DNA of 64,000 nucleotides from Nannocystis pusilla (GCF_049060185.1 NZ_JBMEQO010000002.1), one strand, 5' to 3'. Counted from the stretch's first letter, positions 975 to 62,122 are shown. Program-made: numbers and translations. Notes: a model not told the origin generated them from the letters alone.

Positions 975-1045
975 CACATGTCTCTCGGGACAGCCTCGCG
1001 CGACATCGTCCGCGTCGATCCATGCCTGTCCCCGAGAACAGGTCG
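975..1045. repeat. GGACATGTCC-family palindromic repeat cluster
   Basis: CACATGTCTCTCGGGACAGCC…CATGCCTGTCCCCGAGAACAGG. This is an internally inverted version of the 21-nt core GACATGTCCCGAGAGACAGCC seen at 28997. It is intergenic, lying after the MFS stop. Confidence 0.6.
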
Positions 1046-2129
1046 ATCCTCGTCTCCCGCATCGACCCGTCTCCAGGCGCAGGTCGGTCCTCTTGCTCCA
1101 TCCCCCGCGACATCGTCGGCCGCACCAGACCCATCGGCCCGGCGCGTGCGTGCTCTACCGCTGCATGCACCGCCGAGATTTTGCCCTCGGGCTCGTCGCC
1201 GCCGGCGCCTGGGCTTGCGGCGAGCGCCCCACCTCCGCGCCGCCCCTCCTCGCCGCGCGCTCGCGCCCGAGCCCGAGCCCGAGCTCCCCGCGCCCGGTCC
1301 GCCCCCGCCGCCGGTCGCAACTGCGGCCCTCGGCCCGCCCCTCATTACTCGCGCTGCCCTCGACGCCCGCGCCGACGAATTGCGCGAGCGCCACGCCGGC
1401 CGCGGCTTCACCGTCCTCGTCGAGCCGCCCTTCGTCGTCCTCGGCGACGAGTCGCCCGCCGACGTCCAGCGGCGGGCCGATCGCACGATTCACTGGTCGG
1501 TGCTGCGGCTCAAGCAGGACTACTTCGCCCGCGACCCGGCGCGCATCATCGACGTGTATCTGTTCGCCGACCGCGCCAGCTACGGCCGCAACACCCGCGA
1601 GTTGTTCGGCGAGGAGCCAGACACCCCCTATGGCTATTACTCGCCGCGGCACGCCGCCCTGATCATGAACATCGGCACCGGCGGCGGCACCCTCGTCCAC
1701 GAGATCGTCCATCCGTTCATGGCCGCCAACTTCCCCGCCTGCCCCGCCTGGTTCAACGAGGGCCTCGCCTCGCTCTACGAGCAGTGCGGCGAGCACGGCG
1801 GCCGGATCGTCGGCTACCCCAATTGGCGCCTGCCGCACCTGCAGGCCGCCATCCGGTCCCGACGCCTGCGCTCGTTCGCCGAGCTGTGCGCCACCGACTC
1901 CGACGAGTTCTACGGCGCGCGCTCCGGCCTCAATTACGCCCAGGCCCGCTACCTCTGCTATTATTTACAGGAGCAGGATCGCCTGCGCGACTACTATCAT
2001 GCCTTCGTCGCCGGCGCCGACCTCGATCCCGGCGGCTACGCCACCCTGCAGAAGCTCGTCGGCCACCGCGACATGCCCCGCTTCGAGCGCGAGTGGCGGC
2101 GCTTCGTCCTCGACCTGCAGTGGAGCTGA
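978..2129 (+). CDS. Secreted zinc metallopeptidase-like protein (HEIVH … NEGLASLYE, peptidase MA-like); lipoprotein signal in a different frame, so an apparent frameshift
   Basis: The ORF frame carries HExxH plus a downstream NEGLA-x-x-E, the third-ligand motif typical of MA-clan peptidases. A lipobox signal MHRRDFALGLVAAGAWAC starts at 1165 in the +1 frame relative to the catalytic domain. This implies an indel between 1165 and about 1330. Confidence 0.55.
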   Translation: MSLGTASRDIVRVDPCLSPRTGRSSSPASTRLQAQVGPLAPSPATSSAAPDPSARRVRALPLHAPPRFCPRARRRRRLGLRRAPHLRAAPPRRALAPEPEPELPAPGPPPPPVATAALGPPLITRAALDARADELRERHAGRGFTVLVEPPFVVLGDESPADVQRRADRTIHWSVLRLKQDYFARDPARIIDVYLFADRASYGRNTRELFGEEPDTPYGYYSPRHAALIMNIGTGGGTLVHEIVHPFMAANFPACPAWFNEGLASLYEQCGEHGGRIVGYPNWRLPHLQAAIRSRRLRSFAELCATDSDEFYGARSGLNYAQARYLCYYLQEQDRLRDYYHAFVAGADLDPGGYATLQKLVGHRDMPRFEREWRRFVLDLQWS

Positions 2130-2138
2130 GCCGGGCGG

Positions 2139-3257
2139 CTACAGCCCGGCCGCCGCCGCCACCGCCGCCGTCGTCGCCTTGATCACGTCGGTCGCGAACG
2201 CGCGGTCGAGCGTGTCCGGAGTGTCGAGCCCGACCGTGCAGTGATACGCCGGGTTGCGGAACACCCCGGTGTCGAACACGTGCAGCGCCGGCAGGCCGCG
2301 CTCCCAGGCTGCGGTGGTCCGACATGCTCAGCACCCCGAACGCGTCGTCGTCGAGCTTCTCCGCGTCCGTCAGCGTCATCACCCCCGTCAGCCGGCCGAG
2401 GCGCTCCGCCTGCGCCTCCAGCTCGAGCGCGAACGGCTCGGCGGACGCGTCGGCGACCACCGCGATGAAGTCGGCACGGCCCTTGTTCGCCGTCAGCTCG
2501 TCGGCCAGCCCGGGGAACCGCTCCGCCAGCGGCCCCGGGAAGATCTGCGAGTGCTCCGCCGCGCTCGCGTAGCCGATCATGTCGAAGTTGAACGCCACCG
2601 CCAGCTTCGCGCCCGTGAACGACTGCGCGAACGCCCGCGAGCCGCGCAGCCCCAGCTCTTCCTCGTCCCAGCAGGCCACCATCAGCGTGCGCGGCAGCCT
2701 CGCCTGCCCGAGCACGCGCGCCACCTCGAGCGCCCCGGCCACCCCGCTCGCGTTGTCGTCGGCGCCGGGGCAGCCGCTGACGTGATCGTAGTGGGCTGCC
2801 AGCAGCACCACCTCGGACACCGCCGCGGTGCCCTCGCGCGTCCCGATCACGTTGATCCCGGAGCCGTAGTCCTGGCGCTGCACCACGAAGCCCGCCTGCT
2901 CGAGCTCCGCCGCGCAGCGGTCCTGCACCTTCTGCCAGTGGATCGATCCGGGCGGCCGCGGCTGGGCCATGAACGCGACGTCCTCGGCCCAGCGAACCGG
3001 GTCGACGCAATCCATCAGCGCCTCCGGGCTGTCGTGGCCGCAGAGGGACGCGATCCCGACGTCGGGCCCCGGCCCCGTGGTCGTCGGCGCCGCCGTCGTC
3101 CCGCCCGAGCTGCTCGAGCTGCTGGTCCCGCCGGGCGCGCCCGTCTCCGCCGCACCGCTCGTCGTCGTCGCCGCGTCGCTCTCGCCGCTCGTCGCCGGCG
3201 ACGGCACGCACCGAGCCCGAGCCACAACACCCCGACCGCACCGCGGACCGCTCGCAT
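2139..3257 (-). CDS. M28-family zinc aminopeptidase lipoprotein; disrupted by about 2 frameshifts
   Basis: AHYDHVSGCPGADDNASGVAGALEVARVL and EEELGLRGSRAF are M28 hallmarks. The true C-terminus (…WERGLPALHVFDTGVFRNPAYHCTVGLDTPDTLDRAFATDVIKATTAAVAAAAGL*) is in another frame, ending at 2139. The lipobox signal MRAVRGAVGVLWLGLGAC (ATG at 3257) is also out of frame with the Thr/Ser-rich linker. Confidence 0.7.
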
Positions 3258-3292
3258 CGCCGTCACTATAGCACCGGCCCGACCCCTCGCCG

Positions 3293-3775
3293 GTGGATCG
3301 CCCGCCGCCGATCGCTTATGACCGGCGTCATGGCCCACCCCTCACCGAACTCACAGGCTCATGGACCGGCCCCGCGCGCACCTGGCTCGACCCGACTGGC
3401 GGCGAGCCGGACGTCGGCGACTGGCGCGTCCAGATCGAGTCGCTGCTCGACGGCCGCTACGCGCGCCTCCGCTACGACGGCGTGTGCACCGGCAAGCTGC
3501 ACCACGGCGAGATGACCCTCGGCGTCGACGACCACGAGCACACCCTGTACTGGATCGACACCTTCCACACCGGCGCCTCCCCTGTGGTCGATCGGGCCCG
3601 CGGGCCCGCCGTCTCGGTCCTCGGCAGCTACCGCGCCGGCGACCAGCGCTGGGGCTGGCGCACCGCCTTCCGCCGCGACGGCGACGAGCTCGTGATCGAG
3701 GCCACCAACATCGAGCCGAGCGGCGAGGAGACGCGCGCCATCGAGGTCCGCCTCGTCCGCGTCGCGGCTGCCTGA
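3293..3775 (+). CDS. Hypothetical protein (about 160 aa)
   Basis: Clean ORF with coding-like composition (…WRVQIESLLDGRYARLRYDGVCTGKLHHGEMTLGVDDHEHTLYWIDTFHTG…). I recognise no named domain. Confidence 0.45.
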   Translation: MDRPPPIAYDRRHGPPLTELTGSWTGPARTWLDPTGGEPDVGDWRVQIESLLDGRYARLRYDGVCTGKLHHGEMTLGVDDHEHTLYWIDTFHTGASPVVDRARGPAVSVLGSYRAGDQRWGWRTAFRRDGDELVIEATNIEPSGEETRAIEVRLVRVAAA

Positions 3776-3790: not shown

Positions 3791-3845
3791 GGGACATGCC
3801 CGTTCGGCCATGCCCGCACGGACATGTCCCTCACGGACAGGCGAC
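3791..3845. repeat. GGACATGTCC-family repeat, 14-bp periodic (3 to 4 units)
   Basis: GGGACATGCCCGTTCGGC CATGCCCGCACGGA CATGTCCCTCACGGACAGG. It lies between the convergent gene ends 3775 and 3831. Confidence 0.7.
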
Positions 3846-4983
3846 TATCTGCACGTCGTAGCTGAACGGCTGCGGCACCCCGTTCACCGCCACCGTGTAG
3901 GTCTTGCCGGCCTCCGAGGTCCAGCCCTGCGGTGTCATGGCGATCGCGCTGGCCGAGCCGAACCCGCCCATGAGCGCCGTCGTCTTGACCGGCCGGTCGA
4001 CCCCGCCCTCGCTGATCGTCACCTGCGCCGCGCCGAGGTCGATCGCATCGCTCTGGATCGTCCAGCCCGTCTCGTCGACGTCGGACCACGGCACCTCGGG
4101 CACGTGGATCGCGTCGATCGGCACCACCCGGGCGGCGGCCAGGCCGTCCACGCCGCGTCGCCGCCGCCCTGCCCGCCGATCACCCACATGCACGAGTTGA
4201 CGGCCGTCGATCCGAGCCCGACCGGCCCGAGCCCGTTCGAGAGGATCCACCGCCGGTGGCCGAAGGTCGTCGCATTGCCGGGGTCGACCATGTAGAGGTC
4301 GACCGCGACCACGCCCGGCGTCGACGAGATGTTGCTGTTCTTCGCCGCCTGCGCCCGTCGGCGCTGTAGCAGTCCCACTGCATCGGCGGGTCGTGCGACA
4401 GCTGCCCGTTGGCGTGCATCATCAGCGCGCACTGCTGCGCCTTGGCATTGAGCCCCGCGTCGTGCCCGACCGCCGGCAGCCCGGCCAGCCAGCGGTACAG
4501 GTTGATCAGCCTGAGCGCGTTGTCGCGGCCCGGCGCGCCCGTGTCGCCCGCCTGACAGCCGGCGACCGCCCCGCTCCATGTCCCTTCGGACATGTCCGCA
4601 CGGTCCGCCGTCCAGCGCGCGCACCTCCGCCGCCGGATCGATCGGCTCGCCGGTGGTGGTGATGTCGCCGGTGGTGGTCGTCGAAGCCGCGCTGGACGTC
4701 CCGCTCCCGGTCGGACCTGGCCCCGAGGACACCTCGTCCGGGCCCGTGGTCGTCGTGCCCGCGACGCTCGTGCTCGTCGGCTCCCCGCGGTCGACGCCTC
4801 GCTGGTGCCCGGCGCGCTCGCATCGCTGGTCCCCGGTCCGGTGCTCGCCGCGCTCGCGCCGGTGCTCGTCGCCTCGCTCGCGGTCTCGGGCATACCGATG
4901 CTCTCGGTCACCTCCGCGACGCCCGAATAGCAGCCGACGACGAGCACGGACATTGATGCGAGGACGACGCGAGAGGGCAGCAT
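3831..4983 (-). CDS. CAP/SCP/PR-1 domain lipoprotein with Ser/Thr-rich linker; at least 3 frameshifts
   Basis: Lipobox signal MLPSRVVLASMSVLVVGC. CAP-domain motifs (…NALRLINLYRWLAGLPAV…, …TTFGHRRWILSNGLGP…) are spread over three overlapping ORF fragments (4180..4983, 4019..4732, 3831..4250). Confidence 0.6.
4576..4606. repeat. GGACATGTCC-family repeat (2 units) inside the linker region of the CAP lipoprotein gene
   Basis: CCATGTCCCTTCGGACATGTCCGCACGG. It lies between the Thr/Ser-rich linker and the CAP domain and coincides with a frame change. Confidence 0.6.
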
Positions 4984-5218: not shown

Positions 5219-7545
5219 TCAGCCCGGCGGCGCGGCCTTGCGGCTCTCGGCCACGATCCGCACCAGGTCGGCCTCGTCCTCGCACAGCGCCACGATCAGG
5301 TCGCCCGGCACCAGAGTCTCGTCCGGCCGCGGGTTGACGATCAGCCGCCGCCGCAGCTCCGCGTGCGACGTCCCGCCCGCCGGCGCCTTGCCGCCCGGAT
5401 CGGCCGTGCGATACAGCCCCAGCGGCACCGCGCCGCCGCGGCCTTGCACCTCGAGCAGCGCGCGTCGGGCCTTGCGCCACGACTGTCCGATGAGCCAGGT
5501 CGGCGCCGGCGCCGTGTAGACCTCGGCGTTGTCGTCGGCGAACGCCACCAAGCGGTTGAACAGCTCCGCGAACGCGCGATCGCGGCACGCCATCACCAGC
5601 CAGCGGTGCGCCAGCGCCTGGCAGTCGACCGGCACCAGCCAGGCCGCGAACGGCGAGAACACCTCCTCGCGCTCCGCCTCCGACGTCTCGACCAGAGTCA
5701 CCGGCAGCGCCGGCGCAGTGCGGGCGATCTCCACCGACGTCGCCGCCACCCCGAGCGTCCGCGCCCGCTGCCCCCGCCGATCGGGTCGCGCGCGCACGCC
5801 TGGTGCACTGCGCGGGCGATCCGCAGCGGATCGTAGCTCGCCCCCGATCCATCGCCGTCGCCGAGCACGATCACCCGGGCGGCCCGCGGCAGCCGCAGCC
5901 CCGCCAGGTCCTCCGGCACCTCCGGGTTCGAGTGGTGGATCGTCAGCGCCTTGACCCGCGCCAGCTGCAGCCGCACCGCCGCGGCAGCGCGTCGGACACC
6001 ACCACGTGCAGCGGCCGGTGTCGCGTCGGCCCCGGGCTGCGCAGCAGGCGGATCAGCGGCAGCATGTCCTCGCGGAAGTTCAGCACCACCAGGTGCCGGT
6101 TGAGCCGCCGCCACAGCCGCGTCTGCTCCTGCGCGAAGATGTTGGTCAGCGTCGCGGTGAACCACGCCAGAAGGCCGAGCCCGAGGATCGTCGCCGCCGC
6201 CCCGACCAGCCGCGCCGTCGGCGTCTTCAGCGTCTCGGTCGTGAAGTTGCCGGTGGCGAACGTGTTCATCTCCCAGAACGAGTCATTCAGCGTCCTGAGC
6301 CTGGCGTTCGAGTCATGTTCCAAGGACCAGACGATGAACGTCGACAGCGTCACCACGCACGCGAACGCCGCGAACGGCACCAGCGGGTTCGAAGCTGGCT
6401 CTCGATCCCCGCGCCCGGGACTCGCCGCCGCCGCAGCGCCCGGCGCACCAGGTACAGCACCACCCCCAGCGCCGCCGCGAACGCCCGCCCTGCAGCCACG
6501 CCTGCCGGCGCTCGCTGGTCTCGTGCAGCTCGGCCACCGGGTGCAGCGGGATCGGCTCGCGCTCGGCGAACCCGCGCCACTCCACGCGGACCTTGAGGCT
6601 CGCGTACTGCTTGTCGCGCGCCAGCTTCTTGAGCCCCTGGACCATCGCCTCGACCGCCAGCCGGCGGTCGGCCAGAAGGCCTCGTCTTCCACCCGCTCGC
6701 GCGGCGTCGCCACCAGCACCACCGAGCTCACGCACACCGTCGGCATGCTGTACTCGAGGCCCGGATAGGTCCCGGTCTCGATCGGGCAGATCCGGTAATA
6801 CGGGTAGCCGTCGATCAGGCGGTTCAGCACCGCCTCGGGCAGCGGGTTCAGGGTCGCCAGGCCGGACGCCAGCACGTCGCGGATCTCCGTGTGCCCGGGC
6901 TCGGTGGTCCGCAGCATCGTCAGCAGCTCGCGCCGGCTCATCGCCGCCAGCGCCTCGTCGGCAGTGCCCGTGAACAGCGGCAGCTGCTCCGCGGTGTGAC
7001 CGGCCGCGCCGAGGATCACCTTGGCCGTCTCGTAGCTGCCCGAGCCGTCCTTGCCCATGAACAGCGGCTCGCGGCCGATCTCGGCGAAGTCGTCGAGGCG
7101 CACCGGCCGGCGCACCAGCACGTGGACCGCCGCGTCGGACACCGCCGCGATCACCCGCAGCTCGGCCTTGTCGGCCTCCTCGGGCGACAGCTTGCACATC
7201 CACCCGCCCTTCGGGATCGCGCTGTCGCCCGCGTCCGCGTCGGCCTGCCCGGCCTTGAACGCCTCCGCCGCCACGTCGTACTGCACCAGCGCCGCGTCGA
7301 GCTCGCCCGACAGCAGCTTGTGCACGTTCTCGCACGAGCCCTTGGTCGACTCCGGCGCGATCGTCACCGCCCCTCGCCCTGGACCGCCTCGGCCAGCGCG
7401 TGCGCGGTCACGTCGAACCCGCCCTTCTTGGCCCCCGAGCCGAAGCGGACCACGATCGCCTCGCCCGCCCGCGCCGCACCTGTCTGCAGGAACATGCCCA
7501 AAGCACAGGCGCGATCGACCATGTCCTCGAGAACATGCCCTTACG
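5219..7545 (-). CDS. TAXI-family solute-binding domain fused to an ion-channel pore and RCK_N/RCK_C cytoplasmic domains (putative ligand-gated channel); several frameshifts
   Basis: TAXI motifs (…FGSGAKKGGFDVTAHALAEAV…, TIAPESTKGSCENVHKLLSGELDAALVQYDVAAEAF, …GYPYYRICPIETGTYPGL…). TM/pore segment (…PFAAFACVVTLSTFIVWSLEH…FATGNFTTETLKTP…LGLGLLAWFTATL…). RCK_N-like (HLVVLNFREDMLPLIRLL…HVVVSD, …RVIVLGDGDGSG…). RCK_C (…LIVNPRPDETLVPGDLIVALCEDEADLVRI…, ORF 5219..5797). The pieces lie in different frames. The N-terminus is not resolved. Confidence 0.5.
7477..7545. repeat. GGACATGTCC-family repeat cluster (about 4 units)
   Basis: CACCTGTCTGCAGGAACATGCCCAAAGCACAGG…CCATGTCCTCGAGAACATGCCC. It overlaps the putative 5' end of the TAXI-channel gene. 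Confidence 0.65.
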
Positions 7546-9723: not shown

Positions 9724-11615
9724 GTGTCCGAGCGCGACCGCTTCCTCGCCTTCGCCGCCCGGGCCGTGCCCGTCGCGTTCGGCGCCCGGCCGGCGCCCGG
9801 CGAGCTCGCCGCCCACTGGCGGGCCGCGACCCAGGCGATCGGCGCCCGCCTCGTCCTCGCCTGCGCGCGCGAGCGCCTCGTCGAATTCGACCTTCAGGAC
9901 ATGTCCCTTCGCACATGTTCCTTGAGCCTCCCGCTGCGACGGCGCCGGGCCTTCGAGCTGCACGCCGCCGACCTCGACTGCGCCGACCTCCCCGACCTCC
10001 CCGACCTGCTCCCACGCCTCCTGCCCGCGCTCGCCCCCGCCGCCCGCGCCCGGATCGCGCGCGAGCTCGCCGACAGCCGCTGGAACCTCGCCCTCGCCCG
10101 CCTCGCCGCCGACCTGCGCCATCGGACATGCTCTGAAGGCCAGCCTTGGCCTGCCCCGCTCGACCCCGAGAACCTGGTCGTCGACGGTCACCCGTGGCAC
10201 CCGATGAGCAAGACCCGGCTCGGCCTGCGCGCCTGGGAGAACCTGCGCCACGGCCCCGACCTCCTGGCCCAGGCAGCGGTCCACGCCGTCGACGTCGCCG
10301 CCGAACACGCCCAGCTGGCCGAGCCGGCCCTCTACGCCGACCTCGCGCGCGCCCTGTTCCCGGCCCCGCCGCCTGGCCTGGTCCGCCTGCCCGTCCACGC
10401 CCTTCAGCTACGCCGCCTCCCGCGCCTGCTCGGCCCGCTGTGGGGCCGCGAGGTCCGCCCCGCCGGCCTGCCCCCGCTCCACGCGCGGGCCCTGCTCAGC
10501 CTGCGCACCGTCGCCCTCGCCGCGCCCGCGCTGCACCTCAAGCTCGCCGTCGACATCCACACCACCAGCGCGCGGCGCCAGGTCTCGCCCGCCTCGGTCC
10601 ACAACGGCCCGGCGATCGCCGCCCTCCTGGCCGCGATCCAGGCCGCCGATCCGCAGACCCGCCGCGGCCTGCAGATCCAGCCCGACCTCGCCGCCGCCGG
10701 CCTGCACCTCGCCACGGCCCCGCCGCCGGCCAGCTCGGCGTCGTCCTTCGCCCCGATCCGCTCCCCTCGCCCGACAGCTCCACGCCGACCTCGCCGCACC
10801 CGCCGACCCGTCCCGCGCGACGTCGACCGCCCCGGACTCGCCCGCCGGCACACCTGCCTCTTCCGACCTGTCCTCCGAGACATTACCCTCACGACATGCC
10901 CCCTGGGACCTGTCCCGCGCGACATATTCATTCAATCATGTCCGATCGCGCACCCCGCAGCTCGTCGTCTGCGCCGCCCTCGGCGAGCGCCGGCCCGGCG
11001 GCGACCTCCTGTTGCGCGAGCTCGCCGCCGACTACCCCGGCGATCCGCGCGCGCGTCTCGCGGCCTTCTTCCACGACTACCTCGACCTCCTCGTCCCCGC
11101 GGCCCTGCGCCTGCTCACCGCCCACGGCGTCGCCCTCGAGGCGCACCTGCAAAACACCCTCCTCGTCCACGCCGGGCGCCCTGCGGCTTCGTCGTCCGCG
11201 ACCTCGGCGGAGTGCGGCTCCACCGCGGGCGGCTGGCCGCGGCCGGCCATGCCCCCGCGCTCGCCCCCGACTCCTTCACCTTGACCTCCGACCTCGCCGA
11301 GGCTCAGGGCAAGCTGCTGCACACCCTCGTGCACGCCCACCTCGCGGCTGTGATCGGTTGGGTCGACGACGCCGGCGGCCCCGACCCCGACGTCCTGTGG
11401 CCCGCGGTGCGACGGATCTGCCAGCGCGAGTGGGATCGCTGGGCCGCCGATCCGGCGCTCGCGCGCGCGTGCGCCGACGATCGCGCGTTCTTCTTCGCGG
11501 CCACCTGTCGCAGCAAGGCGCTGCTGCGCATGCGCATCGACGAACGCGTCAGCGATTACGCCTATACCGAGGTCGCCAACGCGCTCGCCGAGGGGTACTC
11601 TTCCCCGCCGCATGA
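9724..11615 (+). CDS. IucA/IucC-family NIS siderophore synthetase with C-terminal FhuF-like domain; frameshifted
   Basis: …[17 protein letters not shown]…, …[29 protein letters not shown]…, …[16 protein letters not shown]…[11 protein letters not shown]… lie in three frames. The stop overlaps the downstream ATG (ATGA). Repeat units sit inside it at 9891..9925, 10124..10135 and 10866..10945. Confidence 0.7.
9891..9925. repeat. GGACATGTCC-family repeat (2 units) inside the IucA/IucC N-terminal codons
   Basis: CCTTCAGGACATGTCCCTTCGCACATGTTCC encodes …[11 protein letters not shown]…. Confidence 0.55.
10866..10945. repeat. GGACATGTCC-family repeat cluster (about 5 units) in the middle of the IucA/IucC gene
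   Basis: GACCTGTCCTCCGAGACATTACCCTCACGACATGCCCCCTGGGACCTGTCCCGCGCGACATATTCATTCAATCATGTCCGATCGCG. It coincides with a reading-frame switch. Confidence 0.65.
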
Positions 11616-12540
11616 CGACCCGTCCGCTCGTGTTCGCCACCCCCGAGTACGGCTACTTGCAGGCCGCGCTGTGCGGCTCGGCCGCGCTGGAGGCCGGCGA
11701 GATCGACACCTTCGCCTTCCCTGACGGCGAGCGCTACCTCCGCCTCGTCACCCCGGTCGAGGGCCGCGACGTCGTCCTGATCGGCGGCACCGTCGACGAC
11801 GCCGCCGCGCTCACCCTGTTCGACCTCGCCTGCGGCGCCGTCCATTACGGCGCCCGCCGCCTCACCCTCGTCGTCCCCTACTACGGCTACGCGACGATGG
11901 AGCGCTCGACCAAGCCCGGCGAGGTCGTCACCGCCAAGACCCGCGCCGCGCTGTTCTCGGCCATCCCGCCGGCCTCCTACGGCAACCGCGTGCTCCTCCT
12001 CGACCTCCACGCCGAGGGCATCCCGCACTACTTCGAGGCCGGCCTGGTCGCCACCCACGTCTACGCCAAGCCGGTCATCCGCGACATCATCCTCGACATC
12101 GCCGGCGGCCAGCCCTTCGTGCTCGCCTGCACCGACGCCGGCCGCGCCAAGTGGGTCGAGTCGCTGGCCAACGACCTCGGGGTCACGGCAGCCTTCGTGT
12201 TCAAGCGCCGCCACGACGGCGAGCGCACCGAGATCACCGCCATCGACGCCCAGGTCGCCGGCAAGCCGGTCATCCTCTACGATGACATGATCCGCACCGG
12301 CGGCTCGCTGATCGGCGCCGCCCGGGCTATCAGCGCGCCGGCGCCGTCAGCCTGGCCGCGGTCGCCACCCACGGCATCTTCCCCGGCGACGCCCTGCACA
12401 AGCTGCAGGCCACCGGCCTGTTCTCCGCCATCGCCTGCACCGACAGCCACCCCGCGCGCGCGCCCTCGCGGCCGCCAGCGCCGGCGACCCGACCCCGCTG
12501 CGGGTCGCCTCGATCGCCCCCTCCTCGCGCCTCACCTCGC
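11612..12540 (+). CDS. Ribose-phosphate pyrophosphokinase (Prs)-family protein; 1 frameshift near 12330
   Basis: …[21 protein letters not shown]…, …[20 protein letters not shown]… (PRPP-binding loop). Confidence 0.7.
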
Positions 12541-12578
12541 AGGACATGTCCTTTAGACCCTGTCCCCGGAGACATTGA
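12541..12578. repeat. GGACATGTCC-family repeat immediately upstream of the nadE ATG
   Basis: AGGACATGTCCTTTAGACCCTGTCCCCGGAGACATTGA-ATG. It contains a GGAG that could serve as SD. Confidence 0.7.
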
Positions 12579-14556
12579 ATGCACCTCGTCCGCGTCGCCG
12601 CCGCCGCCCTCAACCAGACGCCGCTCGACTGGGACGGCAACCAGGCCCGGATCGTCGAGGCGATCCGCCTGGCCCGCCGCGAGGGCGTCGCCGTCCTGTG
12701 CCTGCCCGAGCTGTGCATCCCCGGCTACGGCTGCGAGGACGCGTTCTTCGGCCGCGGCACGATCCTCGAGTCGTGGCGGATCTTGCAGGAGCTGCTGCCC
12801 GAGACGAAGGGCATGGTCGTCGCGCTCGGCCTGCCGATCATGCACCGCGCCGCCAACTACAACGCGGTCTGCCTGGTCGCCGACGGCCACATCGTCGGCC
12901 TGGTCGGCAAGCGCTTCCTCGCCGGCGACGGCATTCACTACGAGCCGCGGTGGTTCAAGGGCTGGCCGGCCGGCAAGTTCGTGCAGTGGGAGCACGACGG
13001 CCACAGCTACCCGCTGGGCGACCAGATCTTCGAGGTCGGCGGCCTGCGGATCGGCTTCGAGATCTGCGAGGACGCGTGGGTCCCGAACCGCCCCGGCGTC
13101 GAGCTCGCCAGCCAGGGCGTCGACGTGATCTGCAACCCCAGCGCCAGCCACTTCGCGTTCGGCAAGCACGAGGTGCGCAAGCAGATCGTCCTCAACGCCT
13201 CACGCAGCTTCCGCGCCACCTACGTCTACTCCAACTTCATCGGCAACGAGGCCGGCCGCGTCATCTACGACGGCGAGTGCATGATCGCCTCATCCGGCCA
13301 CCTGATCGCCGAGGGCCGCGGCTCGGCTACAAAGACGTCTACGTCACCAGCGCCGTGGTCGACGTCGACCTCGCGCGCATGGTCCACGCGCGCACGACCT
13401 ACGCGCCCACGGTCGACGACAATGTCCGCCGGATCACCCGGTTCGACATGCAGCTGCCGACCGCCGACCTGCCGCCGCACGCCATCGCCCCCGACGACGC
13501 GCTGCGCAACGACAAGCGCGAGGAGTTCTCGCGCGCCGTCGCTCTCGGCCTGTTCGACTACCTGCGCAAGAGCCGGTCGCGCGGCTTCGTCGTCTCGCTC
13601 AGCGGCGGCGCCGACTCGGCCGCGGTCGCCTACCTCGTCCACCTCATGGTCACTCTGGCCACGCAGGAGCTCGGCGTCGCGGCCACCTGCGCCCGCCTCG
13701 GCCTGCCCGAGGGCTCGTGCACCACCCCGCGGGCGATCGTGCGGGCGCTCCTGACTTGCGTCTACCAGGCGACCGCCAACAGCTCCGACACCACCCGCAA
13801 CGCCGCCCGCGCGGTCGCCGAGGCCGTCGGCGCCGAGTTCCTCGAGTTCGACGTCGACCCGCTCGTGCGCGCCTACGTGCGCACGGTCGAGGGCGCGATC
13901 GGCCGCGAGCTCGGCTGGAAGAGCGACGACATCGCCCTGCAGAACATCCAGGCCCGCGCCCGCGCCCCGGCGTGTGGCTGCTGGCCAACCTGCGCGGCGC
14001 CCTCCTGCTGGCCACCAGCAACCGCAGCGAGGCCGCCGTCGGCTACGCCACCATGGACGGCGACACCTGCGGCGGCCTGTCGCCGATCGCCGGCATCGAC
14101 AAGGCCTTCCTGCGCCAGTGGCTGCGGTGGGTCGAGCTCGAGGGCCCCGCCGGCGTCGGCCCCACGCCGGCCCTGAGCGCCGTCAACGTCCAGGCCCCGA
14201 CCGCCGAGTTGCGGCCCGCCGGGGCCAAACAGACCGACGAGGACGACCTGATGCCGTACCCGATCCTCGACGTCATCGAGCGCGCCGCCATCCGCGACAA
14301 GCTCGCGCCGAAAGAGGTCTACCGGGTCCTCGCCAGCCGCTTCCCCGAGCACGGCCGCGACCAGCTGCTGCTGTGGATCAAGCGCTTCTTCCGCCTGTGG
14401 AGCCAGAACCAATGGAAGCGCGAGCGCTACGCCCCGAGCTTCCACCTCGACGACGAGAACCTCGACCCCAAGACGTGGTGCCGCTTCCCGATCCTCTCGG
14501 GCGGCTTCGTGCGCGAGCTCGCCGAGCTCGACAACGTCGTGCCGAAGAGCGGCTGA
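12579..14556 (+). CDS. nadE: Glutamine-dependent NAD+ synthetase (nitrilase + NAD synthase domains); about 2 frameshifts
   Basis: N-terminal CN-hydrolase (…LCLPELCIPGYGCEDAF…, …GFEICEDAWVPNRP…). C-terminal NAD synthase (…GFVVSLSGGADSAAVAYLV…). Pieces in ORFs 12579.., 12575.., 13717... Confidence 0.85.
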
Positions 14557-14565
14557 GCCTGGCTA

Positions 14566-14598
14566 GGGGCATGTCCCCGAGGACATCCCGCAGGACGC
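14566..14598. repeat. GGACATGTCC-family repeat (2 to 3 units) downstream of nadE
   Basis: GGCTAGGGGCATGTCCCCGAGGACATCCCGCAGGAC. Confidence 0.65.
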
Positions 14599-15502: not shown

Positions 15503-16219
15503 TCAACCGCGACCCGCGAGCAGCCGTTCGGTCCAGCGCTGTAGCGCCGCGAGCCGGGCCTGCTGCCGCCCGTCGCCGGCCTGCAGCGCCGCGCGCGTCA
15601 TGCAGAACACGTCGGACGTGATTGTGCCGACCTCGGGGTAGTCCTCCTCGAGCGAGCCGAGCTCGACCGCGCCGACCGCCGCCAGCAACGGCCGGGTGAC
15701 CAGGTTGCGCACCGGCCGGGCGACGACGGTGGCGAACACGAGGTCGCAGCCGTCCTCGAGCAGCCGCGCCAGCGCCCGCCACGCCAGGGCCGGCGCGCAC
15801 AGCCTGTACTTCGGGTCAGGCAGCACCGCGAGCTGATCGAGGTAGCCGAGGCGCAGCCCCTCGAGCGCCGCGAGCTCGCCGGCGCCGAGGCCCTCGCCCC
15901 AGGCGATGTGGGCGCGGCGCTGCCACAGCGCGCTGTGGCGCAGCGACGGATCCGGCAGCGCGGTGACGAAGCCGACCACCCGCGGGCCGTCGAGCAGGAC
16001 ATCGACCTGTGCCCCGGCCAGCAGCGCCTCGTACTGCGCGCGCGAGGAGCCGAGCAGAAATCCGCCGCGGCTGCTCTCGGCGACCCCGGGGTCGGGCTGC
16101 ATCCGCAGCTGCTGCTTGATCTGCAGCATGGCCTCGGCGTCGCCGAGGACGCCCGCCCGCAGGCGCAACACCGGCGATGGTGTTTGGGACATGTCCATCC
16201 GGTCAGCTTCGAGGTTCAT
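15503..16219 (-). CDS. GNAT-like acetyltransferase-family hypothetical protein
   Basis: The ATG at 16219 overlaps the desaturase stop (ATGA). Weak GNAT-like pattern. A GGACATGTCC unit lies in codons 6 to 12 (…DRMDMSQT…). Confidence 0.4.
   Translation of the reverse strand: MNLEADRMDMSQTPSPVLRLRAGVLGDAEAMLQIKQQLRMQPDPGVAESSRGGFLLGSSRAQYEALLAGAQVDVLLDGPRVVGFVTALPDPSLRHSALWQRRAHIAWGEGLGAGELAALEGLRLGYLDQLAVLPDPKYRLCAPALAWRALARLLEDGCDLVFATVVARPVRNLVTRPLLAAVGAVELGSLEEDYPEVGTITSDVFCMTRAALQAGDGRQQARLAALQRWTERLLAGRG
16184..16200. repeat. Single GGACATGTCC unit at the desaturase/GNAT junction
   Basis: TTTGGGACATGTCCATCC. Confidence 0.55.
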
Positions 16220-43533: not shown

Positions 43534-43612
43534 AGGACATGTCCCGAGGGTCATGCCCCTTGCGCATGCCCGAGAGAACATGCCCCCGAGGTCATATCCC
43601 GAAGGACATATC
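43534..43612. repeat. GGACATGTCC-family repeat cluster (5 to 6 units) between convergent genes
   Basis: GGACATGTCCCGAGGGTCATGCCCCTTGCGCATGCCCGAGAGAACATGCCCCCGAGGTCATATCCCGAAGGACATATC. Confidence 0.8.
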
Positions 43613-46443: not shown

Positions 46444-46485
46444 AAAGACATGTCGCCCGGGCCATGCCCCTGGCGACATGTCTTT
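46444..46485. repeat. 14-bp-stem hairpin with CATG-centred arms (AAAGACATGTCGCC-N14-GGCGACATGTCTTT)
   Basis: The loop itself carries a CATGCCC half-unit. Lies 22 bp after the lipoprotein stop. Confidence 0.8.
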
Positions 46486-46519: not shown

Positions 46520-46780
46520 CGCGCCGTCCCTCGCGCCGCATCGGTGCTTCGCCCGCGCTCCGCAGCCGTCGCCTCGCTCGATCGCGCCGCCCCACGTCAG
46601 TTCGTCGCCGTCCCTCGGTCGCGCCGCCTTACGTAACTCTTCGCCTCGCTCGCGCCGCCCCAGTCCGTCGCCCGCCCTCGCTTGCGCCGCCCCGGTCGGT
46701 CCGTCGCCCGCCCTCGCTCGCGCCGCCCCAGTCCGTCCGTCGCCCGCCCTCGCTCGCGCCGCCCCACGCCCCATGTCCCT
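46520..46780. repeat. 36–40-bp GC-rich tandem repeat array x7 (GTCGCCCGCCCTCGCTCGCGCCGCCCCAGTCCGTCC)
   Basis: Direct tandem copies. The best three lie at 46657..46770; more diverged copies lie upstream. No unique spacers. Confidence 0.8.
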
Positions 46781-46850
46781 CAGGACATGCCCATCCGGCC
46801 ATGCCCATCCCGACATGTCCGTTCCGACATGTCCTCTCGCCCTCTCGCGA
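46775..46850. repeat. 14-bp tandem repeat x5 (CATGYCCNTYCSGR)
   Basis: CATGTCCCTCAGGA / CATGCCCATCCGGC / CATGCCCATCCCGA / CATGTCCGTTCCGA / CATGTCCTCTCGCC. Confidence 0.85.
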
Positions 46851-47749: not shown

Positions 47750-48411
47750 ATGTACCGCCCCCTCCTCGCCGCCGTGCTCGTGGTCGCTGCCGTCGGGTGT
47801 CGCAAGCGCGAGGTCGTCGCCGACATGGACTACGACGACCCCAAGGCGGCGATCGCCACCATGGAGAGCGAGGGGCGCGAGTCGTGGGAGATGCCCGACC
47901 GGATCGTCCGCGCCCTCCCGATCCCCGACAAGGGCGCAGTGATCGCCGACATCGGCGCCGGCTCCGGCTACTTCTCGCGCCGGCTGGCTCAGCAGGTCCC
48001 GACCGGCACCGTCTACGCCGTCGACATCGACGACGAGTTCCGCTCCCACATCGAGTCGCAGCGCGAGAGCTGGGGCACCCCAACATCCAGCCGCACCTCG
48101 CCTTCTACGACGACCCGGCGCTGCCCGAGAAGGCCATCGACCTGGTGTTCGTCGCCAACACCTACGCCTATCTGCGCGACCGCGTGCGCTACTTCAAGAA
48201 GGTCCACCAGGCGCTCAAGCCCGGCGGTCGCCTGGCGATCGTCGACTTCCGGCCCGACGCGCAGCCGCCGGAGAAGTTCGCACCTGACCCGAAGTACAGG
48301 CTCTCGCGCGACGCCATCGTCGCCGAGCTCGCCCAGGCCGGCTTCGCCCTCGAGCGCGAGGAGGACTTCCTCCCGCACCAATACTTCCTCATCTTCGCCA
48401 TGAAACCTTGA
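47750..48411 (+). CDS. Class I SAM-dependent methyltransferase with N-terminal lipobox; 1 frameshift
   Basis: SAM-binding motif …VIADIGAGSGYFSRRLA…. Confidence 0.65.
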
Positions 48412-48417
48412 CCATGC

Positions 48418-49210
48418 CCGCGCAGCGTCCGCCCCGTTTCCCCGGCCTCGTCGACACCCACTGCCACCTCGACTACCCGCCGATGATCGACGACCTCGCT
48501 GCCACCTTGCAGCGGGCCGCCGACGCCGGCGTCGTGCAGATGATCCACGTCGGCTGCTCGCGCGCCAGCGCCCGCGGGCCGTCGCCCTGGTCGCCCCGCA
48601 CGCCCACCTGTTCGCCGCCGTCGGCATCCACCCGCACGACGCCAAAGAGGCCGACGAGGTCGCCCTGGCCGAGATCGCCGCCCTCGCGCGCGACGCCAAG
48701 GTCGTCGCCGTCGGCGAGACCGGCCTCGACTACCACTACGACAACAGCACGCCCGAGGCGCAAAAACGCGCCCTGGCCGCCCACCGCGAGATCGCCCGCG
48801 ACCTCGACAAGCCGCTGGTCCTGCACATCCGCGAGGCCCACGCCGACGCCCTCGCCATCCTCGACGACGCCCCGGCCCTCCCGCGCGGCGGCGTCGTCCA
48901 CTGCTTCACCGGCACCCCCGCCGAGGCCGAGCAGTGGCTGGCGCGCGGCTACCTCCTGTCCTTCTCCGGCATCGCCACCTTCCCCCAGGCCGAGGCTCTG
49001 CGCGACGCGGCCCGCCTGTGCCCCGCCGATCGCCTGCTGCTCGAGACCGACGCCCCGTACCTCGCCCCGGTGCCCGTGCGCGGCCGCAAGAACGAGCCCG
49101 CCAACGTCGCCTTCACCTGCGCGCACCTCGCCGGCGTCCGGCGCGAAGATCCGGCCGCCCTGGCCGTGCAGGCCGGGGCCAACGCCCGCGCCTTCTTCCG
49201 CTTGCCTGCC
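48418..49210 (+). CDS. tatD: TatD-family metal-dependent DNase/hydrolase; 2 to 3 frameshifts
   Basis: …LVDTHCHLD…, …VVAVGETGLDYHY…, …LVLHIREAH…, …LLETDAPYLAPVPVRGRKNEPANV…. Confidence 0.7.
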
Positions 49211-50064: not shown

Positions 50065-50082
50065 GACCCCGGTTCCGAAGGC

Positions 50083-50108
50083 CCTGTCCTTCGAGACATG
50101 TCCTTGGA
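50083..50108. repeat. GGACA/TGTCC units between rplC and rlmE
   Basis: CCTGTCCTTCGAGACATGTCCTTGGA. Confidence 0.6.
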
Positions 50109-50159: not shown

Positions 50160-50779
50160 ATGACCCGCCACCGCCTCAGCGACAAGGCCCACCGCAACGA
50201 CGCCGCCTACCTGCGCGCCAAGCAAGAGAACTACGCCGCGCGCGCGGTCTACAAGCTCGAGGAGATCGACAAGCGGTTCCACATCCTGCGCCAGGGCGCG
50301 CGGGTGCTCGACCTCGGCTGCTGGCCCGGCTCGTGGATCCAGTACGCCGGCGACCGCGTGACCGAGACCGGCTACGTCCTCGGCATCGACCTCAAGCCGG
50401 TCGTCCTCAGCTTCCCGGCCCACGTCGAGCACCGCGTCGCCGACGTGTTCGAGTGGACCCCGCGCCCGAGCTGCAGCCGTTCGACGTCGTCCTCAGCGAC
50501 ATGGCCCCGCACACCACCGGCGACCGCCACACCGACGTCGTCCGCAGCGAGGGCCTGGCCGAGCGCGCCCTCGACATCGCCTGCATGGTCCTGCGCCCCG
50601 GCGGCCACTGCGTCGCCAAGGTGTTCCAGGGCGGCGGCTTCGGCGAGCTGCTCAAGCGCTTCCGCGCCACCTTCCAGGAGGCGCGCCCCTACCACGCCAA
50701 GAACTCGCGCACCACCAGCACCGAGCAGTACCTGGTCGGCCGCGGCCTCAAGGCCAACGCCACCGTCCGCCGGCCCTGA
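50160..50779 (+). CDS. rlmE: 23S rRNA (uridine-2'-O)-methyltransferase RlmE (FtsJ); 1 frameshift
   Basis: …RAVYKLEEIDKRFHIL…LDLGCWPGSWIQY…, …VVLSDMAP…GD…. Confidence 0.8.
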
Positions 50780-50789: not shown

Positions 50790-50858
50790 GGGACATGTCC
50801 TCCGAGACATGTCCCGACGCACCCTGCCGCCGGGACATGTCCTCCGCGACATGCGCCG
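50790..50858. repeat. GGACATGTCC-family repeat cluster (4 units): two GGACATGTCCTCCG-GACATG pairs
   Basis: GGGACATGTCCTCCGAGACATGTCCCGACGCACCCTGCCGCCGGGACATGTCCTCCGCGACATGCGCC. Confidence 0.85.
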
Positions 50859-54440: not shown

Positions 54441-54693
54441 CAGCGAGCGACGACAGTCATCGCAACGCAGCGCAGCGCATGACAGAGTCCTTCCCTCCGG
54501 AAGGCCGTTTTCGGGCTGCGAGCGACGCCCGCAACGCAGCCCAGCGCATGAATCGGCCTTCCGAAGGCCGTTCTTTTGGAGCTGCGAGCGACGCCCGCAA
54601 CGCAGCCCGGCGCATGACTCGGCCCTCTCGAAGGCCGCTTTTTCGAGCTGCGAGCGACGCGACGCAGCGGGGCGCATGACTGGCGTCCCGCGT
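54441..54693. repeat. About 66-bp tandem repeat x3.5, each unit with a small GC hairpin plus T-tract (terminator-like module)
   Basis: Unit: GCTGCGAGCGACGCCCGCAACGCAGCCCRGCGCATGAMTCGGCCYTCYGAAGGCCGYTYTTTTSGA (units at 54441, 54516, 54582, 54648). Confidence 0.8.
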
Positions 54694-56182: not shown

Positions 56183-56232
56183 AGACATGCCCTCTCAAGC
56201 ATGTCCGAAAGACCATGTTCGATAGGACATAC
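56183..56232. repeat. GGACATGTCC-family repeat cluster (4 units)
   Basis: AAGACATGCCCTCTCAAGCATGTCCGAAAGACCATGTTCGATAGGACATACC. Confidence 0.7.
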
Positions 56233-56350
56233 CGGCCGTCGCCGCAACACATCCATGTCCTCGTTCTGCTCGCACCGCCGTCCGAGCGCGGACGCCTGCG
56301 CGTGGTGTCCTCAGGACTTCGCGCCATTCGCGCATGGCTCACATTTAATT

Positions 56351-56386: not shown

Positions 56387-57040
56387 ATGCCCCGGCCACG
56401 CGAGTTCGATCGAGACGAGGCCATCGAGCGGGCCATGGCCGTGTTCTGGGAGCACGGCTACGACGGCACCTCGACCGATCAGCTCCTCCAGGCCATGGGC
56501 ATCGGCCGCCAGAGCATGTACGCCGCCTTCGGCGACAAGCACGGCCTCTACCTCGCCGCGCTGGAGCGCTACCAGGCGCGTCAGGGCGCCGACCTGCTGG
56601 AGCGGCTGCGGGCGGTGTCCTCCCCGCTGGGCGCGATCGAGGACATCCTGCTCGGCGTGGCCGGAGACACCGCCGAGGGGCGTTCGCGCGGCTGTTTCGG
56701 CATCCAGTCGATCATCGAGATGGCCGGGCGCGACCCCGAGGTCGTGACCCTGGCCCGCAGCGCCACTGCCCTGTGCGAGGCCGCCTTCGAGCGCATGGTC
56801 GCCGAGGCCAAACGCCGCGACGAGGTCGGCGCGCACGTCGACGAGCGCAGCGCCGGCCGCTTCCTCCTCTCCACCCTGCAGGGCCTGCGGGTCAGCGCTC
56901 GCACGGGCGCCACGCCCGAGGCCCTGCGGGCCGTCGCCGGCTTCGCCATCGCCGCCCTCCGGCCGCGCCGCCCGCCGCAAGTTCTTGACTCCATGGTCCA
57001 CAACCCTACCGCTCGCGGCAGCCAGCGACGCACCGCGTGA
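56387..57040 (+). CDS. TetR/AcrR-family transcriptional regulator
   Basis: HTH motif …FWEHGYDGTSTDQLLQAMGIGRQSMYAAFGDKHGLY…. Confidence 0.8.
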   Translation: MPRPREFDRDEAIERAMAVFWEHGYDGTSTDQLLQAMGIGRQSMYAAFGDKHGLYLAALERYQARQGADLLERLRAVSSPLGAIEDILLGVAGDTAEGRSRGCFGIQSIIEMAGRDPEVVTLARSATALCEAAFERMVAEAKRRDEVGAHVDERSAGRFLLSTLQGLRVSARTGATPEALRAVAGFAIAALRPRRPPQVLDSMVHNPTARGSQRRTA

Positions 57041-57200
57041 GCGGCCCGTCGTCGACTGCATCGTCTAAAAACTCACCGCTCGCGACAGCCCGCGACGGAC
57101 CGCATGCGCGGCGTCGTCGACTGCATCCTCCACAACCCACCGTTCGTGACAGTCGACGCCCACCGCCTCGGGCGGCCGTCGTCGACAGGAGTGATTCGTC

Positions 57201-59042: not shown

Positions 59043-59653
59043 ATGAACATCGACCTCGCCGATGCTTGTCCGTCGCCGCCCTCATGAGCCAGGGCGTCGC
59101 CACAGCCGGCTGCACGATCAACCTCGGCGGTCTCTCCGATACCAACATCGGCCCCGAGTCGACCACGACCACGAGCACCGCCGGCACCACGGACGACACG
59201 ACCAGCACCGGCACGGCGGGCGAGACGACCGACGCCACCGAGACCGACCCCGGCACCAGCGTGCCGACGACCACCGAGGCCCCGACCAGCACCACCGAGG
59301 CCACCGCGGGCACCACCGAGGCCACCGCGGGCACCACCGGCGACGCCTTCGTCTGCAGCGACGGCACCGCGCTCGCGGACCCCGCCTGGGTCTGCGACGA
59401 GAACCCCGACTGTCCCGACGGCTCCGACGAGGTCAGCGGCTGCGGCCTCGAGGCCTTCACCTGCACCGACAAGAAGGAGATCCCCGCGACCTGGGCCTGC
59501 GACGAGGTCCCCGACTGCCTCGACAACTCCGACGAGGTCAGCGGCTGCGGCCTCGAGGCCTTCGTCTGCACCAACGGCACCGAGATCCCGGCGACCTGGA
59601 AGTGCGACATGGCCGAGGACTGCCCCGACGGCTCCGACGAGGCCGACTGCTGA
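59043..59653 (+). CDS. Secreted/lipoprotein with Thr-rich linker and 3 LDL-receptor class A (LDLa) Cys-rich repeats
   Basis: The pattern C..G…W.CD…DC.DGSDE..C occurs three times (…FVCSDGTALADPAWVCDENPDCPDGSDEVSGC… and two further copies). Lipobox …ATAGC. Start uncertain (59043 or 59084). Confidence 0.55.
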
Positions 59654-59663
59654 GATGACCGCA

Positions 59664-59752
59664 GGGACATGTCCTAAAGGGCGTGTCATGTCCCACGCGC
59701 GGCCGCTCCCGACGACCTGAAAGTCCACATGACCTCTCGGTCATGTCCCTTC
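59664..59752. repeat. GGACATGTCC-family repeat cluster (about 5 units) between convergent genes
   Basis: GGGACATGTCCTAAAGGGCGTGTCATGTCCCACGCG…GTCCACATGACCTCTCGGTCATGTCCCTTCAGG. Confidence 0.8.
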
Positions 59753-61035: not shown

Positions 61036-61364
61036 GAGGGTCCGGTCGCGGCACGACGATCACCGCCGCCCATGCTCGCCGCGACAGCGCCCGCTCCCGA
61101 CCGCGCCTCTCGTTCCGCTCGCGCTGCGCCCTCTCCGCGAGCGAGCGCTCCCTCCACCGCCCGCGCGTTGCTCGTCCCGGCTCTCGCCTCCGCGCCGTCC
61201 GCAGTCTTGGCCCGCGCGTGCCCGTCACGAGCGGGCGCTCGCCTCGACGCCCGCGTCGCTCGCCACGTCTCCTGGCTCGCACGAGCCTGTCCTCGAGCCA
61301 CACCTCGCCTCGAACGCCCGCGCCCGCCCGCGAGCAGCGGCGCCGGCACCGTCACGGCCTTGCG

Positions 61365-61460
61365 AGAGGACATGTAGATTCAAACATGACCTTTCGCGCA
61401 CGTCCTTTCGCACATGCCCCATCGGACATGCCCACTCGAACATGCTCAATCAGACAGACC
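61365..61460. repeat. GGACATGTCC-family repeat cluster (about 6 units) downstream of trpF
   Basis: GAGGACATGTAGATTCAAACATGACCTTTCGCGCACGTCCTTTCGCACATGCCCCATCGGACATGCCCACTCGAACATGCTC. Confidence 0.75.
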
Positions 61461-62075
61461 GCGACAGGCCGCCAGCAGCGCCACGATCGCCGCGCGGTCC
61501 TTCTCCCGCGGCGCGCTCCCGGCAACTCCGTCCCGCTGGCGACGTCGAGCCCGGCCGGGCGGACCTGCGCGATCGCCTGCGCCGCGTTGGCCGGCGTGAT
61601 CCCGCCGGCCAGCCACACCTCGAGCCCCGCGAGCTGCTGCACCGCCGCCGCGGCCCATGCCCAGTCGGTCGTCTGGCCTGCCCCGCCGTAACCGGGCACC
61701 GCCGCGTCGAGCAGCGCGCGGGCCGGCCGGGGTTAGGCGGCAGCAGCTCGGCCAGGGCAGGCGTGCCGCGGACCACCCAAAGGTACGGCAGCCCGTAGCC
61801 CGTCACCTCTTCGGCGCCGACGATCTGCACGAGGTCGAGCGCCAGCGTCTCGGCCGCGCGGCGGACCTCGTCGGCCGACGGCTCGACGAACACCCCCACG
61901 CGCTCGAGCGAGCGCGGCGGGTCGACCGCGCGCAGCAGCGCCTCTGCCTCGGTCAACGACAGCCCGCGGCGCGACCCGCTCCACAGGTTGATCCCGACCG
62001 CGTCGACCCCCAGCTCGACGCAGGCCGCCAGGTCCTCGGGGCGGGTCACCCGCACACCTTGAGCTTCACCGCCAT
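61446..62075 (-). CDS. trpF: N-(5'-phosphoribosyl)anthranilate isomerase; about 2 frameshifts
   Basis: MAVKLKVCGVTRPEDLAACVELGVDAVGINLW…, …PGYGGAGQTTDWAWA…, …GGITPANAAQAI…VASGTE…KDRAAIVALL…. Confidence 0.75.
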
Positions 62076-62084
62076 GCGCGCACC

Positions 62085-62122
62085 GACCTGTCCTTCTCGC
62101 CCTGTTCGGAGAAACATGTCCT
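62085..62122. repeat. GGACA/TGTCC units in the trpC–trpF intergenic spacer
   Basis: GACCTGTCCTTCTCGCCCTGTTCGGAGAAACATGTCCTG. Confidence 0.6.

Follow-up and report, generated by a model that had tools for sequence, protein, structure and literature searches.

Results

A recurrent palindrome in the Nannocystis pusilla window

The DNA analysed here is a stretch of 64,000 nucleotides (nt) from Nannocystis pusilla (GCF_049060185.1, NZ_JBMEQO010000002.1), which we refer to as the window and which has a GC (guanine plus cytosine) content of 72%. The GcvH protein that it encodes matches an N. pusilla protein at NCBI with 100% identity. Throughout this window a 10-bp palindrome, GGACATGTCC, stands singly or in short tandem arrays past the ends of genes, and these copies belong to a new REP-like repeat family of Nannocystis (Myxococcota) that marks the 3′ ends of genes and transcription units. 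There are approximately 37 arrays of GGACATGTCC units, or about one per 1.7 kb. Exact copies number 12, against 0.04 expected from dinucleotide shuffles and 0.13 under an order-3 Markov model; allowing up to one mismatch gives 30 copies (1.7 expected), and allowing up to two gives 89 (26 expected). Most isolated matches that fall within coding sequence are at chance level. As a separate observation, 10-mers containing GCGATCGC, the core of the cyanobacterial repeat HIP1, are also enriched in the window (CCGCGATCGC, 10 against 1.6 expected; GGCGCGATCG, 9 against 1.1).

An initial sequence-only reading of the window had described short CATG-centred palindromes at about 30 loci, at a frequency far above chance, and the counts above bear out both statements. 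A unit matching at 8 or more of the 10 positions lies at or beside about 27 of these 30 loci; two of the loci, 975 and 17255, hold degenerate units only. Tandem Repeats Finder (TRF) likewise recovered period-14 arrays (3792, 20849, 46771–46831 and 61408) and the 36-bp array at 28961, the long hairpins noted at 26902 and 46444 are real (z −10.5 and −7.3), and the palindrome is, on inspection, free of stop codons in every frame, as that reading had remarked.

The arrays are found in a variety of genic contexts. At the left end, a degenerate array (TCACATGTCT ctcg GGACAGCCTC ...) occupies 975–1045, directly past a stop codon at 948–950, and a 3-unit array at 3792–3829 lies in a convergent region 17 nt past the stop of a DUF1579 gene (3293–3775), where it was detected by TRF and folds on both strands (z −3.7). 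A doublet at 4574–4597 is followed by two doublets between two minus-strand genes (7476–7540) and by a 6-unit array in which CATG and CCTG units are mixed (10864–10943). The next doublet (12542–12565) covers the last codons and the stop of prs (open reading frame (ORF) 11612–12556) and ends 14 nt before the start of nadE, which has a doublet of its own 11 nt past its stop (14567–14590); a lone perfect unit sits between two minus-strand genes at 16187–16196. Between the gcvT stop (20831–20833) and the gcvH ATG (20913) there are four non-palindromic units of the form GTACCTGTCC-CCGA (20849–20903, plus strand; found by TRF), which do not fold. A single CGACCTGTCC (23809–23818, plus strand) lies past a gene with a DNA_binding_1 (MGMT-type) domain, and three units past a di-haem peroxidase gene (26896–26932) make up the near-perfect long hairpin of z −10.5, which is conserved in Nannocystis sp. 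RBIL2 and N. pusilla Na p29.

Further along, the doublet TGACCTGTCC cctg GGACATCC occupies a convergent region (30508–30531), a 4-unit array (31565–31616) is near-identical in RBIL2, and a 3-unit array (39555–39592) lies in the long region upstream of a hybrid histidine kinase gene. Six units at 43535–43613 begin 3 nt past a stop (43530–43532) in a convergent region. Another convergent region contains both the three units that form a hairpin with a 14-bp stem followed by TTTAAAG (46446–46483, 24 nt past the stop at 46420–46422; z −7.3) and a 5-unit array (46769–46834; TRF). A second 36-bp tandem repeat, of 5.8 copies with the consensus CGTCGCCGCCCTCGCTCGCGCCGCCCCACGTCAGTT, was observed directly upstream of this 5-unit array (46567–46768). 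A doublet (50080–50103) lies 16 nt past an rplC-like stop (50064) and before rlmE/FtsJ, and five lattice positions, comprising two doublets 28 bp apart, begin 12 nt past the rlmE stop in a convergent region (50791–50856). The remaining arrays are four weak units (56183–56234) past a stop at 56149, units on either side of a perfect copy at 59665, between convergent genes (59651–59748), a 6-unit array (61368–61447; TRF at 61408), and three lattice units between two minus-strand genes (62084–62121).

One array lies inside a gene, as had been claimed for units in coding linkers. A 36-bp repeat, made of a unit, its lattice partner and 12 further bp, occupies 28961–29171 (plus strand; TRF) in the Pro-rich linker of an ECF-sigma-like membrane protein. 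The blocks flanking the repeat align in one frame to a 419-aa ECF-sigma-like protein of N. exedens, and the repeat encodes D-M-S-R-E-T-A-type peptide repeats that N. exedens has too. In this protein (28692–29450 in the window; L124 10933–11628 in the compared locus) the linker after the transmembrane helix varies in length, with about 130 codons in the window versus 36 in N. exedens; it consists of D-M/L-S-x-E-T-A repeats, and their DNA follows the repeat lattice.

Units occupy a rigid 14-bp lattice

Each unit consists of the 10-bp palindrome GGACATGTCC and four free bases, and units follow one another head to tail on an exact 14-bp lattice. A logo anchored on CATG alone recovered GGACATGTCC followed by four positions without information; no conserved GTAG-type tetranucleotide flank was present, the logos carrying no information beyond the 10-mer. 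Distances between units of 14, 28, 42 and 56 bp were found in 231, 74, 59 and 19 cases, respectively, with essentially no other spacing. Half-sites were earlier thought to be separated by 0 or 3–6 bp; their spacing is instead fixed, being restricted to GGACA-N0-TGTCC, TGTCC-N4-GGACA and direct N9, which together amount to a single rigid lattice. In unbiased samples, 71–76% of strong units were accompanied by another at exactly ±14 bp, versus 1% at off-lattice control distances. Doublets are the modal array size and make up about half of all arrays, singletons account for 25–29%, and the remainder contain three to six units, six being the largest number found.

Units lie past stop codons

Placement was assessed in approximately 0.9 Mb of Nannocystis DNA, with genes called from codon bias after training on 0.9 Mb from this genus. 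Units peak 10–40 nt 3′ of stop codons, and their distribution upstream of starts is flat and low. Unit density per kb was 8.6 in convergent regions, about 2 in tandem regions and 0.6 in divergent regions, an approximately 14-fold difference between convergent and divergent; units occupy 65%, 28% and 11% of these intergenic regions, respectively. Where tandem intergenic regions are long, the units occupy the fifth that adjoins the upstream stop. Perfect doublets gave the sharpest contrast, with 2.8 per kb in convergent regions, 0.12 in divergent regions and 0.025 in coding sequence (113-fold, convergent to coding), and the public annotation of gcvH loci agrees with the picture obtained from the gene caller. 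The ratio of CCTG to CATG units rises from 0.11 in convergent to 0.20 in tandem and 0.35 in divergent regions, such that CCTG-type units, which are hairpin-incompetent, gain in relative frequency where a terminator would be unwanted.

The placement of the units is therefore that of classical REPs and terminators, which reverses the earlier view that they are not placed like REPs: they hug stop codons, are far denser between convergent than between divergent genes, and are rare before starts. The units that seemed to sit 5′ of the start codons of nadE, gcvH and rlmE occur in short intergenic regions, where they are 0–20 nt past the preceding stop, and their association with the start is thus only apparent.

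The family is specific to Nannocystis and close relatives

Pairs of units at a distance of 14 bp were sought in one genome from each of 185,579 species. At least 113 of the 120 matches listed came from Nannocystis or Nannocystaceae, among them N. pusilla, N. exedens, N. punicea, N. bainbridge, N. radixulma, Nannocystis sp. RBIL2 and metagenome-assembled genomes of Nannocystaceae. At loci chosen by gcvH rather than by the motif, units were present in six of six Nannocystis genomes, and none were found at the gcvH-chosen locus of a syntenic outgroup of the same GC content. The GGACATGTCC family is accordingly specific to Nannocystis and its close relatives, and Nannocystis genomes carry thousands of copies. 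An assembly or adapter artefact was considered and rejected, since the same arrays recur at orthologous positions in at least eight independent Nannocystis assemblies. The scan of viral sequences gave one 66%-GC contig with a single doublet and an unrelated 44%-GC contig (IMGVR_UViG_3300044464_000029; L128 2557–6259) with 12 GGACATGTCC-like sites between small ORFs; in the latter, TTTGTCCGAT often follows the site, one pair is spaced by 14 bp, and the sites are probably a phage regulatory motif.

Comparison of orthologous regions shows that the arrays persist in place while their copy number shifts by whole units. In the orthologous regions of RBIL2 (93% identity) and of Na p29, the arrays of the window recur in place. 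Every Nannocystis species has the gcvT–gcvH array, in 2 to 6 copies, the region past the DNA_binding_1 (MGMT-type) gene carries 1 to 6 units in differing arrangements across species, and two species of 97% identity are distinguished by an indel of two units. The orthologous comparisons revealed neither clean presence/absence insertions nor target-site duplications. Comparing core identity with that of generic non-coding DNA is confounded by local-alignment bias and unit turnover, and we therefore compared cores with spacers inside the same arrays: in orthologous doublets, mismatches affected 9 of 240 core positions versus 16 of 48 positions in the adjacent 4-bp spacers (Fisher p = 2e-8). Taken together, the orthologous arrays, whole-unit indels and core/spacer contrast point to vertical inheritance with turnover of whole units and strong maintenance of the core. 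Units can also spread by segmental duplication of gene ends; in N. pusilla Na p29 (5.89 Mb; L108 3181–3720 and 5941–6420) we observed tandem duplications of approximately 150 bp and 125 bp in which every copy carries a TGA resembling a stop codon and, some 20 nt later, a doublet or single unit.

Degenerate positions are asymmetric between strands

Degenerate variants, ACCTGTCC and ACATGCCC among them, are found on the C-rich strand; followed along the 11.9-Mb contig of N. pusilla, they change strand with the replichore. Composition-matched 8-mers already show a 2:1 strand bias, so that most of this effect is compositional. Position 1 of the unit is nevertheless less conserved than its mirror, position 10 (92 versus 36 variants, in all three substitution classes; p = 8e-7), and ACCTGTCC is found on the C-rich strand in 28 cases versus 3, irrespective of gene direction. 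We regard this modest residual asymmetry, linked to the replichore, as real; a process acting on single strands at the replication fork would be compatible with it.

Comparison with known repeat families

The searchable literature contained no description of a GGACATGTCC repeat family and no paper on Nannocystis repeats, in line with the first impression that the element matches no described family; the 10-mer appears there only as the p53 half-site consensus, which is irrelevant here. The analysis supports its classification as a dispersed repeat of REP/BIME type that is palindromic and intergenic and forms tandem arrays. The closest known family is REP/BIME/REPIN, the RAYT-associated elements of Enterobacteria and Pseudomonas, for which we used published definitions (PMC6006769). 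In common with these, the Nannocystis units are lineage-specific extragenic palindromes present in hundreds to thousands of copies; they lie past stop codons and between convergent genes; they occur as singlets, doublets and regular clusters, the doublets forming hairpins; and they are inherited vertically with variable copy number at orthologous sites. The differences concern the unit itself. REP units are imperfect palindromes of 20–40 nt with a stem-loop of their own and a GTAG-like flank, arranged as inverted pairs with longer linkers, whereas the Nannocystis unit is a perfect palindrome of 10 bp that lacks a conserved flank and is repeated in tandem on the fixed lattice. As for the replicative doublet of REPINs, doublets are the commonest arrangement in Nannocystis and they fold, but they consist of palindromes in tandem, spaced by N4, and show no covariation.

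Other families resemble the units in part. HIP1 (GCGATCGC, cyanobacteria) is also a short, perfect and hugely over-represented lineage-specific palindrome with no settled function, but it is spread over coding and non-coding DNA and lacks fixed-period arrays, whereas the Nannocystis unit is nearly confined to 3′ intergenic DNA; the frequencies of perfect doublets in coding and convergent DNA given above differ accordingly from HIP1-like over-representation in genes. Intrinsic (Rho-independent) terminators, including bidirectional ones, share a GC-rich hairpin 10–40 nt past the stop, present on both strands, and a mostly convergent location; they have idiosyncratic stems, whereas the Nannocystis arrays use one stem sequence genome-wide and lack both a U-tract and pairing covariation. 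The met boxes bound by MetJ (8-bp palindromes in runs of 2–5) are likewise short palindromes arranged head to tail at a fixed period, as potential dimer sites, although operators of this type are local to a handful of promoters and the Nannocystis units occupy thousands of gene ends and are depleted in promoter-bearing regions. The cyanobacterial STRR and MIRU-type repeats also form dispersed intergenic arrays of a short unit with strain-variable copy number, yet their units differ in length and sequence, are non-palindromic and follow no comparable 3′-end rule. DNA uptake sequences (DUS/USS) are evenly spread, non-palindromic 9–12-mers that the competence machinery recognises, in contrast to a palindromic motif that is held on a lattice and restricted to 3′ regions, and KOPS and Chi are asymmetric and strand-skewed through coding DNA, whereas the Nannocystis consensus is palindromic and intergenic and only its degenerate positions are skewed. 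HIP1, uptake sequences, KOPS/Chi and ordinary operators thus each fail on distribution or symmetry.

Other features of the window

Several genes in the window switch coding frame without encountering stops (12615–14520, 19764–20818, 27276–28862, 47750–49189 and 50169–50767); nadE spans three frames and gcvT two, and gcvT is intact (373 aa) in six other Nannocystis genomes. These switches are most likely indel errors of the long-read assembly, and ORF-based annotation of the window is therefore unreliable. Exact look-ups of proteins from the window gave no match, probably because its assembly has different start codons or contains indels. A divergent region upstream of gcvT (19543–19778; equivalents at loci L121–L127) is near-invariant across all Nannocystis and partly conserved in the outgroup; it contains no repeat units and has no Rfam match at the gathering threshold, and might serve the glycine-cleavage operon as a conserved leader or regulatory element. 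Two other tandem repeats lie between genes, one with a 66-bp period (54493–54660, 2.6 copies) that has terminator-like hairpins with T-runs, and one with a 67-bp period (56997–57186, 2.9 copies). The window as a whole gave no match to Rfam at the gathering threshold, and a tRNA scan of it found nothing.

Discussion

Folding potential and the proposed role of the arrays

Compared with shuffled sequences, the arrays fold strongly on both strands (z −3 to −10). Convergent regions that contain units have a median z of −3.8, with 91% below −2, versus a median of −0.84 for convergent regions that lack them, and most 3′ hairpins in these genomes are thus contributed by the family. A consensus scan showed no enrichment of canonical U-tract terminators (8 versus 4.6 ± 2.3 expected), of which N. 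pusilla has almost none. In single-stranded nucleic acid, two neighbouring units would be able to form a hairpin of 10-bp stem and 4-nt loop, nested hairpins could arise from longer arrays, and since the unit is palindromic an identical hairpin would be expected in transcripts of either strand. The arrays would most likely act as modules for bidirectional termination or as barriers to 3′ exonucleases. The same sequence and spacing at thousands of loci, combined with a lack of compensatory changes, lead us to infer that the core is recognised by a sequence-specific factor, for which a RAYT-like single-strand DNA enzyme and a dimeric binding protein are candidates; slippage by whole units would allow arrays to grow and shrink locally. 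Our preferred interpretation, which we hold with evenly balanced confidence, is thus a bidirectional hairpin module for termination or 3′-end protection whose uniform sequence is kept by a putative sequence-specific factor.

A number of observations weigh against this interpretation. The array stems are followed by no U-rich tract. Selection on a hairpin, whether in RNA or DNA, was considered and rejected after four tests revealed no excess complementarity: variants in one unit are uncompensated in its neighbour, whole-stem complementarity of adjacent units does not exceed that of shuffled partners (z = 1.3), spacers show no symmetry across arrays, and single units have no extended palindrome, the complementarity of their flanks being at chance level. 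The 25–29% of strong units that are singletons can form no stable hairpin, the gcvT–gcvH array is non-palindromic and unstructured (z +0.2) and yet is kept genus-wide, and a hairpin loop does not need strict N4 spacing. A terminator role does not account for the replichore-linked asymmetry. Moreover, a weak tblastn search of 1.1 Mb (about 1% of the DNA of the genus) with an E. coli RAYT query gave nothing significant, the best match being a methyltransferase-like ORF. Sequence and spacing, and not pairing, are what is maintained; the four pairing tests together with the retention of the unstructured gcvH array point to a reader of the sequence, either a protein or an enzyme.

Alternative explanations

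A dimeric sequence-specific binder, as was first suggested, stays viable, and one may tentatively postulate that the arrays function as double-stranded DNA, each 10-bp palindrome being bound by a dimer and the dimers polymerising cooperatively along the lattice, such that hairpin potential would be a by-product. Such assemblies could block or insulate transcription, structure the nucleoid, or dock gyrase or another topoisomerase between convergent genes, where positive supercoils accumulate. We regard this explanation as possible though on the unlikely side. It would accommodate the absence of covariation, cores that are approximately 9-fold better conserved than spacers, the rigid spacing, the common singletons and the persistence of half-site-only arrays at gcvH; it also recalls tandem palindromic operators such as met boxes, and the BIME-2 REPs of E. 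coli are gyrase targets. However, no candidate for the binding protein emerged, half-site centres only 5 bp apart are atypical of helix-turn-helix dimers, hairpins explain the strong folding and the prevalence of doublets equally well, and we know of no bacterial precedent for a sequence-specific DNA-binding factor that marks most gene ends. More speculative still is a scenario, which we hold to be rather doubtful, in which a dimeric factor reads GGACATGTCC and assembles cooperatively on the 14-bp lattice at most transcription-unit ends, forming a sequence-specific bidirectional terminator or insulator or a topoisomerase-recruitment site whose maintenance is coupled to replication. If true, this would constitute factor-dependent, sequence-coded termination or insulation that has no described bacterial counterpart, and the coupling to replication would explain the replichore-linked asymmetry.

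The units could alternatively lack any host function and be selfish or neutral micro-repeats, seeded in permissive DNA 3′ of genes, amplified by replication slippage or an HUH/RAYT-type single-strand enzyme, with their uniformity preserved through templated (quasi-palindrome) repair or repeated re-copying. Whole-unit indels and locally homogenised arrays, in which adjacent units share variants above chance expectation, are consistent with this, as are the 125–150-bp higher-order duplications that bring units along and the replichore-linked asymmetry, which fits a single-strand process at the fork; the ranking of convergent over tandem over divergent regions is also common to other non-functional small repeats. 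We nonetheless judge it improbable given that orthologous cores stay intact while adjoining spacers diverge by 33%, that arrays remain at the same sites genus-wide, that no clean insertions or target-site duplications were seen, and that the weak tblastn test found no RAYT. A short, hyper-abundant and genus-specific motif that contains CATG would also suit a highly iterated palindrome that owes its abundance to a methyltransferase with short-patch repair, the mechanism proposed for HIP1, or a DNA uptake sequence, and uptake sequences too cluster as terminator-like pairs past genes; the strict 14-bp lattice and near-absence from coding DNA are unexpected for either, CCTG variants have no CATG site, and uptake sequences are not tandem palindromes, which together make this very improbable. 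Hardest of all to credit is a replication-polarised architecture or repair signal, such as KOPS, Chi or a relative, read directionally by a translocase. The skew of asymmetric variants, including ACCTGTCC, to the C-rich strand, its switch with the replichore in N. pusilla, and the inequality of positions 1 and 10 would agree with such a signal, but a perfectly palindromic consensus carries no direction, the units, in contrast to KOPS and Chi, keep to tandem arrays and 3′ intergenic DNA, and the idea was downgraded once the composition-matched 8-mers had proved to be biased 2:1 themselves.

Implications

Canonical U-tract terminators are mostly missing from high-GC bacteria, myxobacteria among them, and little is understood of how genes end in these organisms. 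In Nannocystis, one short sequence on a fixed lattice makes up most of the structured DNA at gene ends across the whole genus, and the family provides a defined handle on 3′-end formation in genomes of 11–13 Mb. Conservation at the level of sequence that is not accompanied by structural covariation suggests a putative reader protein or enzyme. Because copy number varies by whole units, the arrays are usable as strain-typing markers, and they are candidate portable terminator parts for engineering myxobacterial producers of natural products. The range of REP-like repeats now reaches the Myxococcota, with an unusually small unit.

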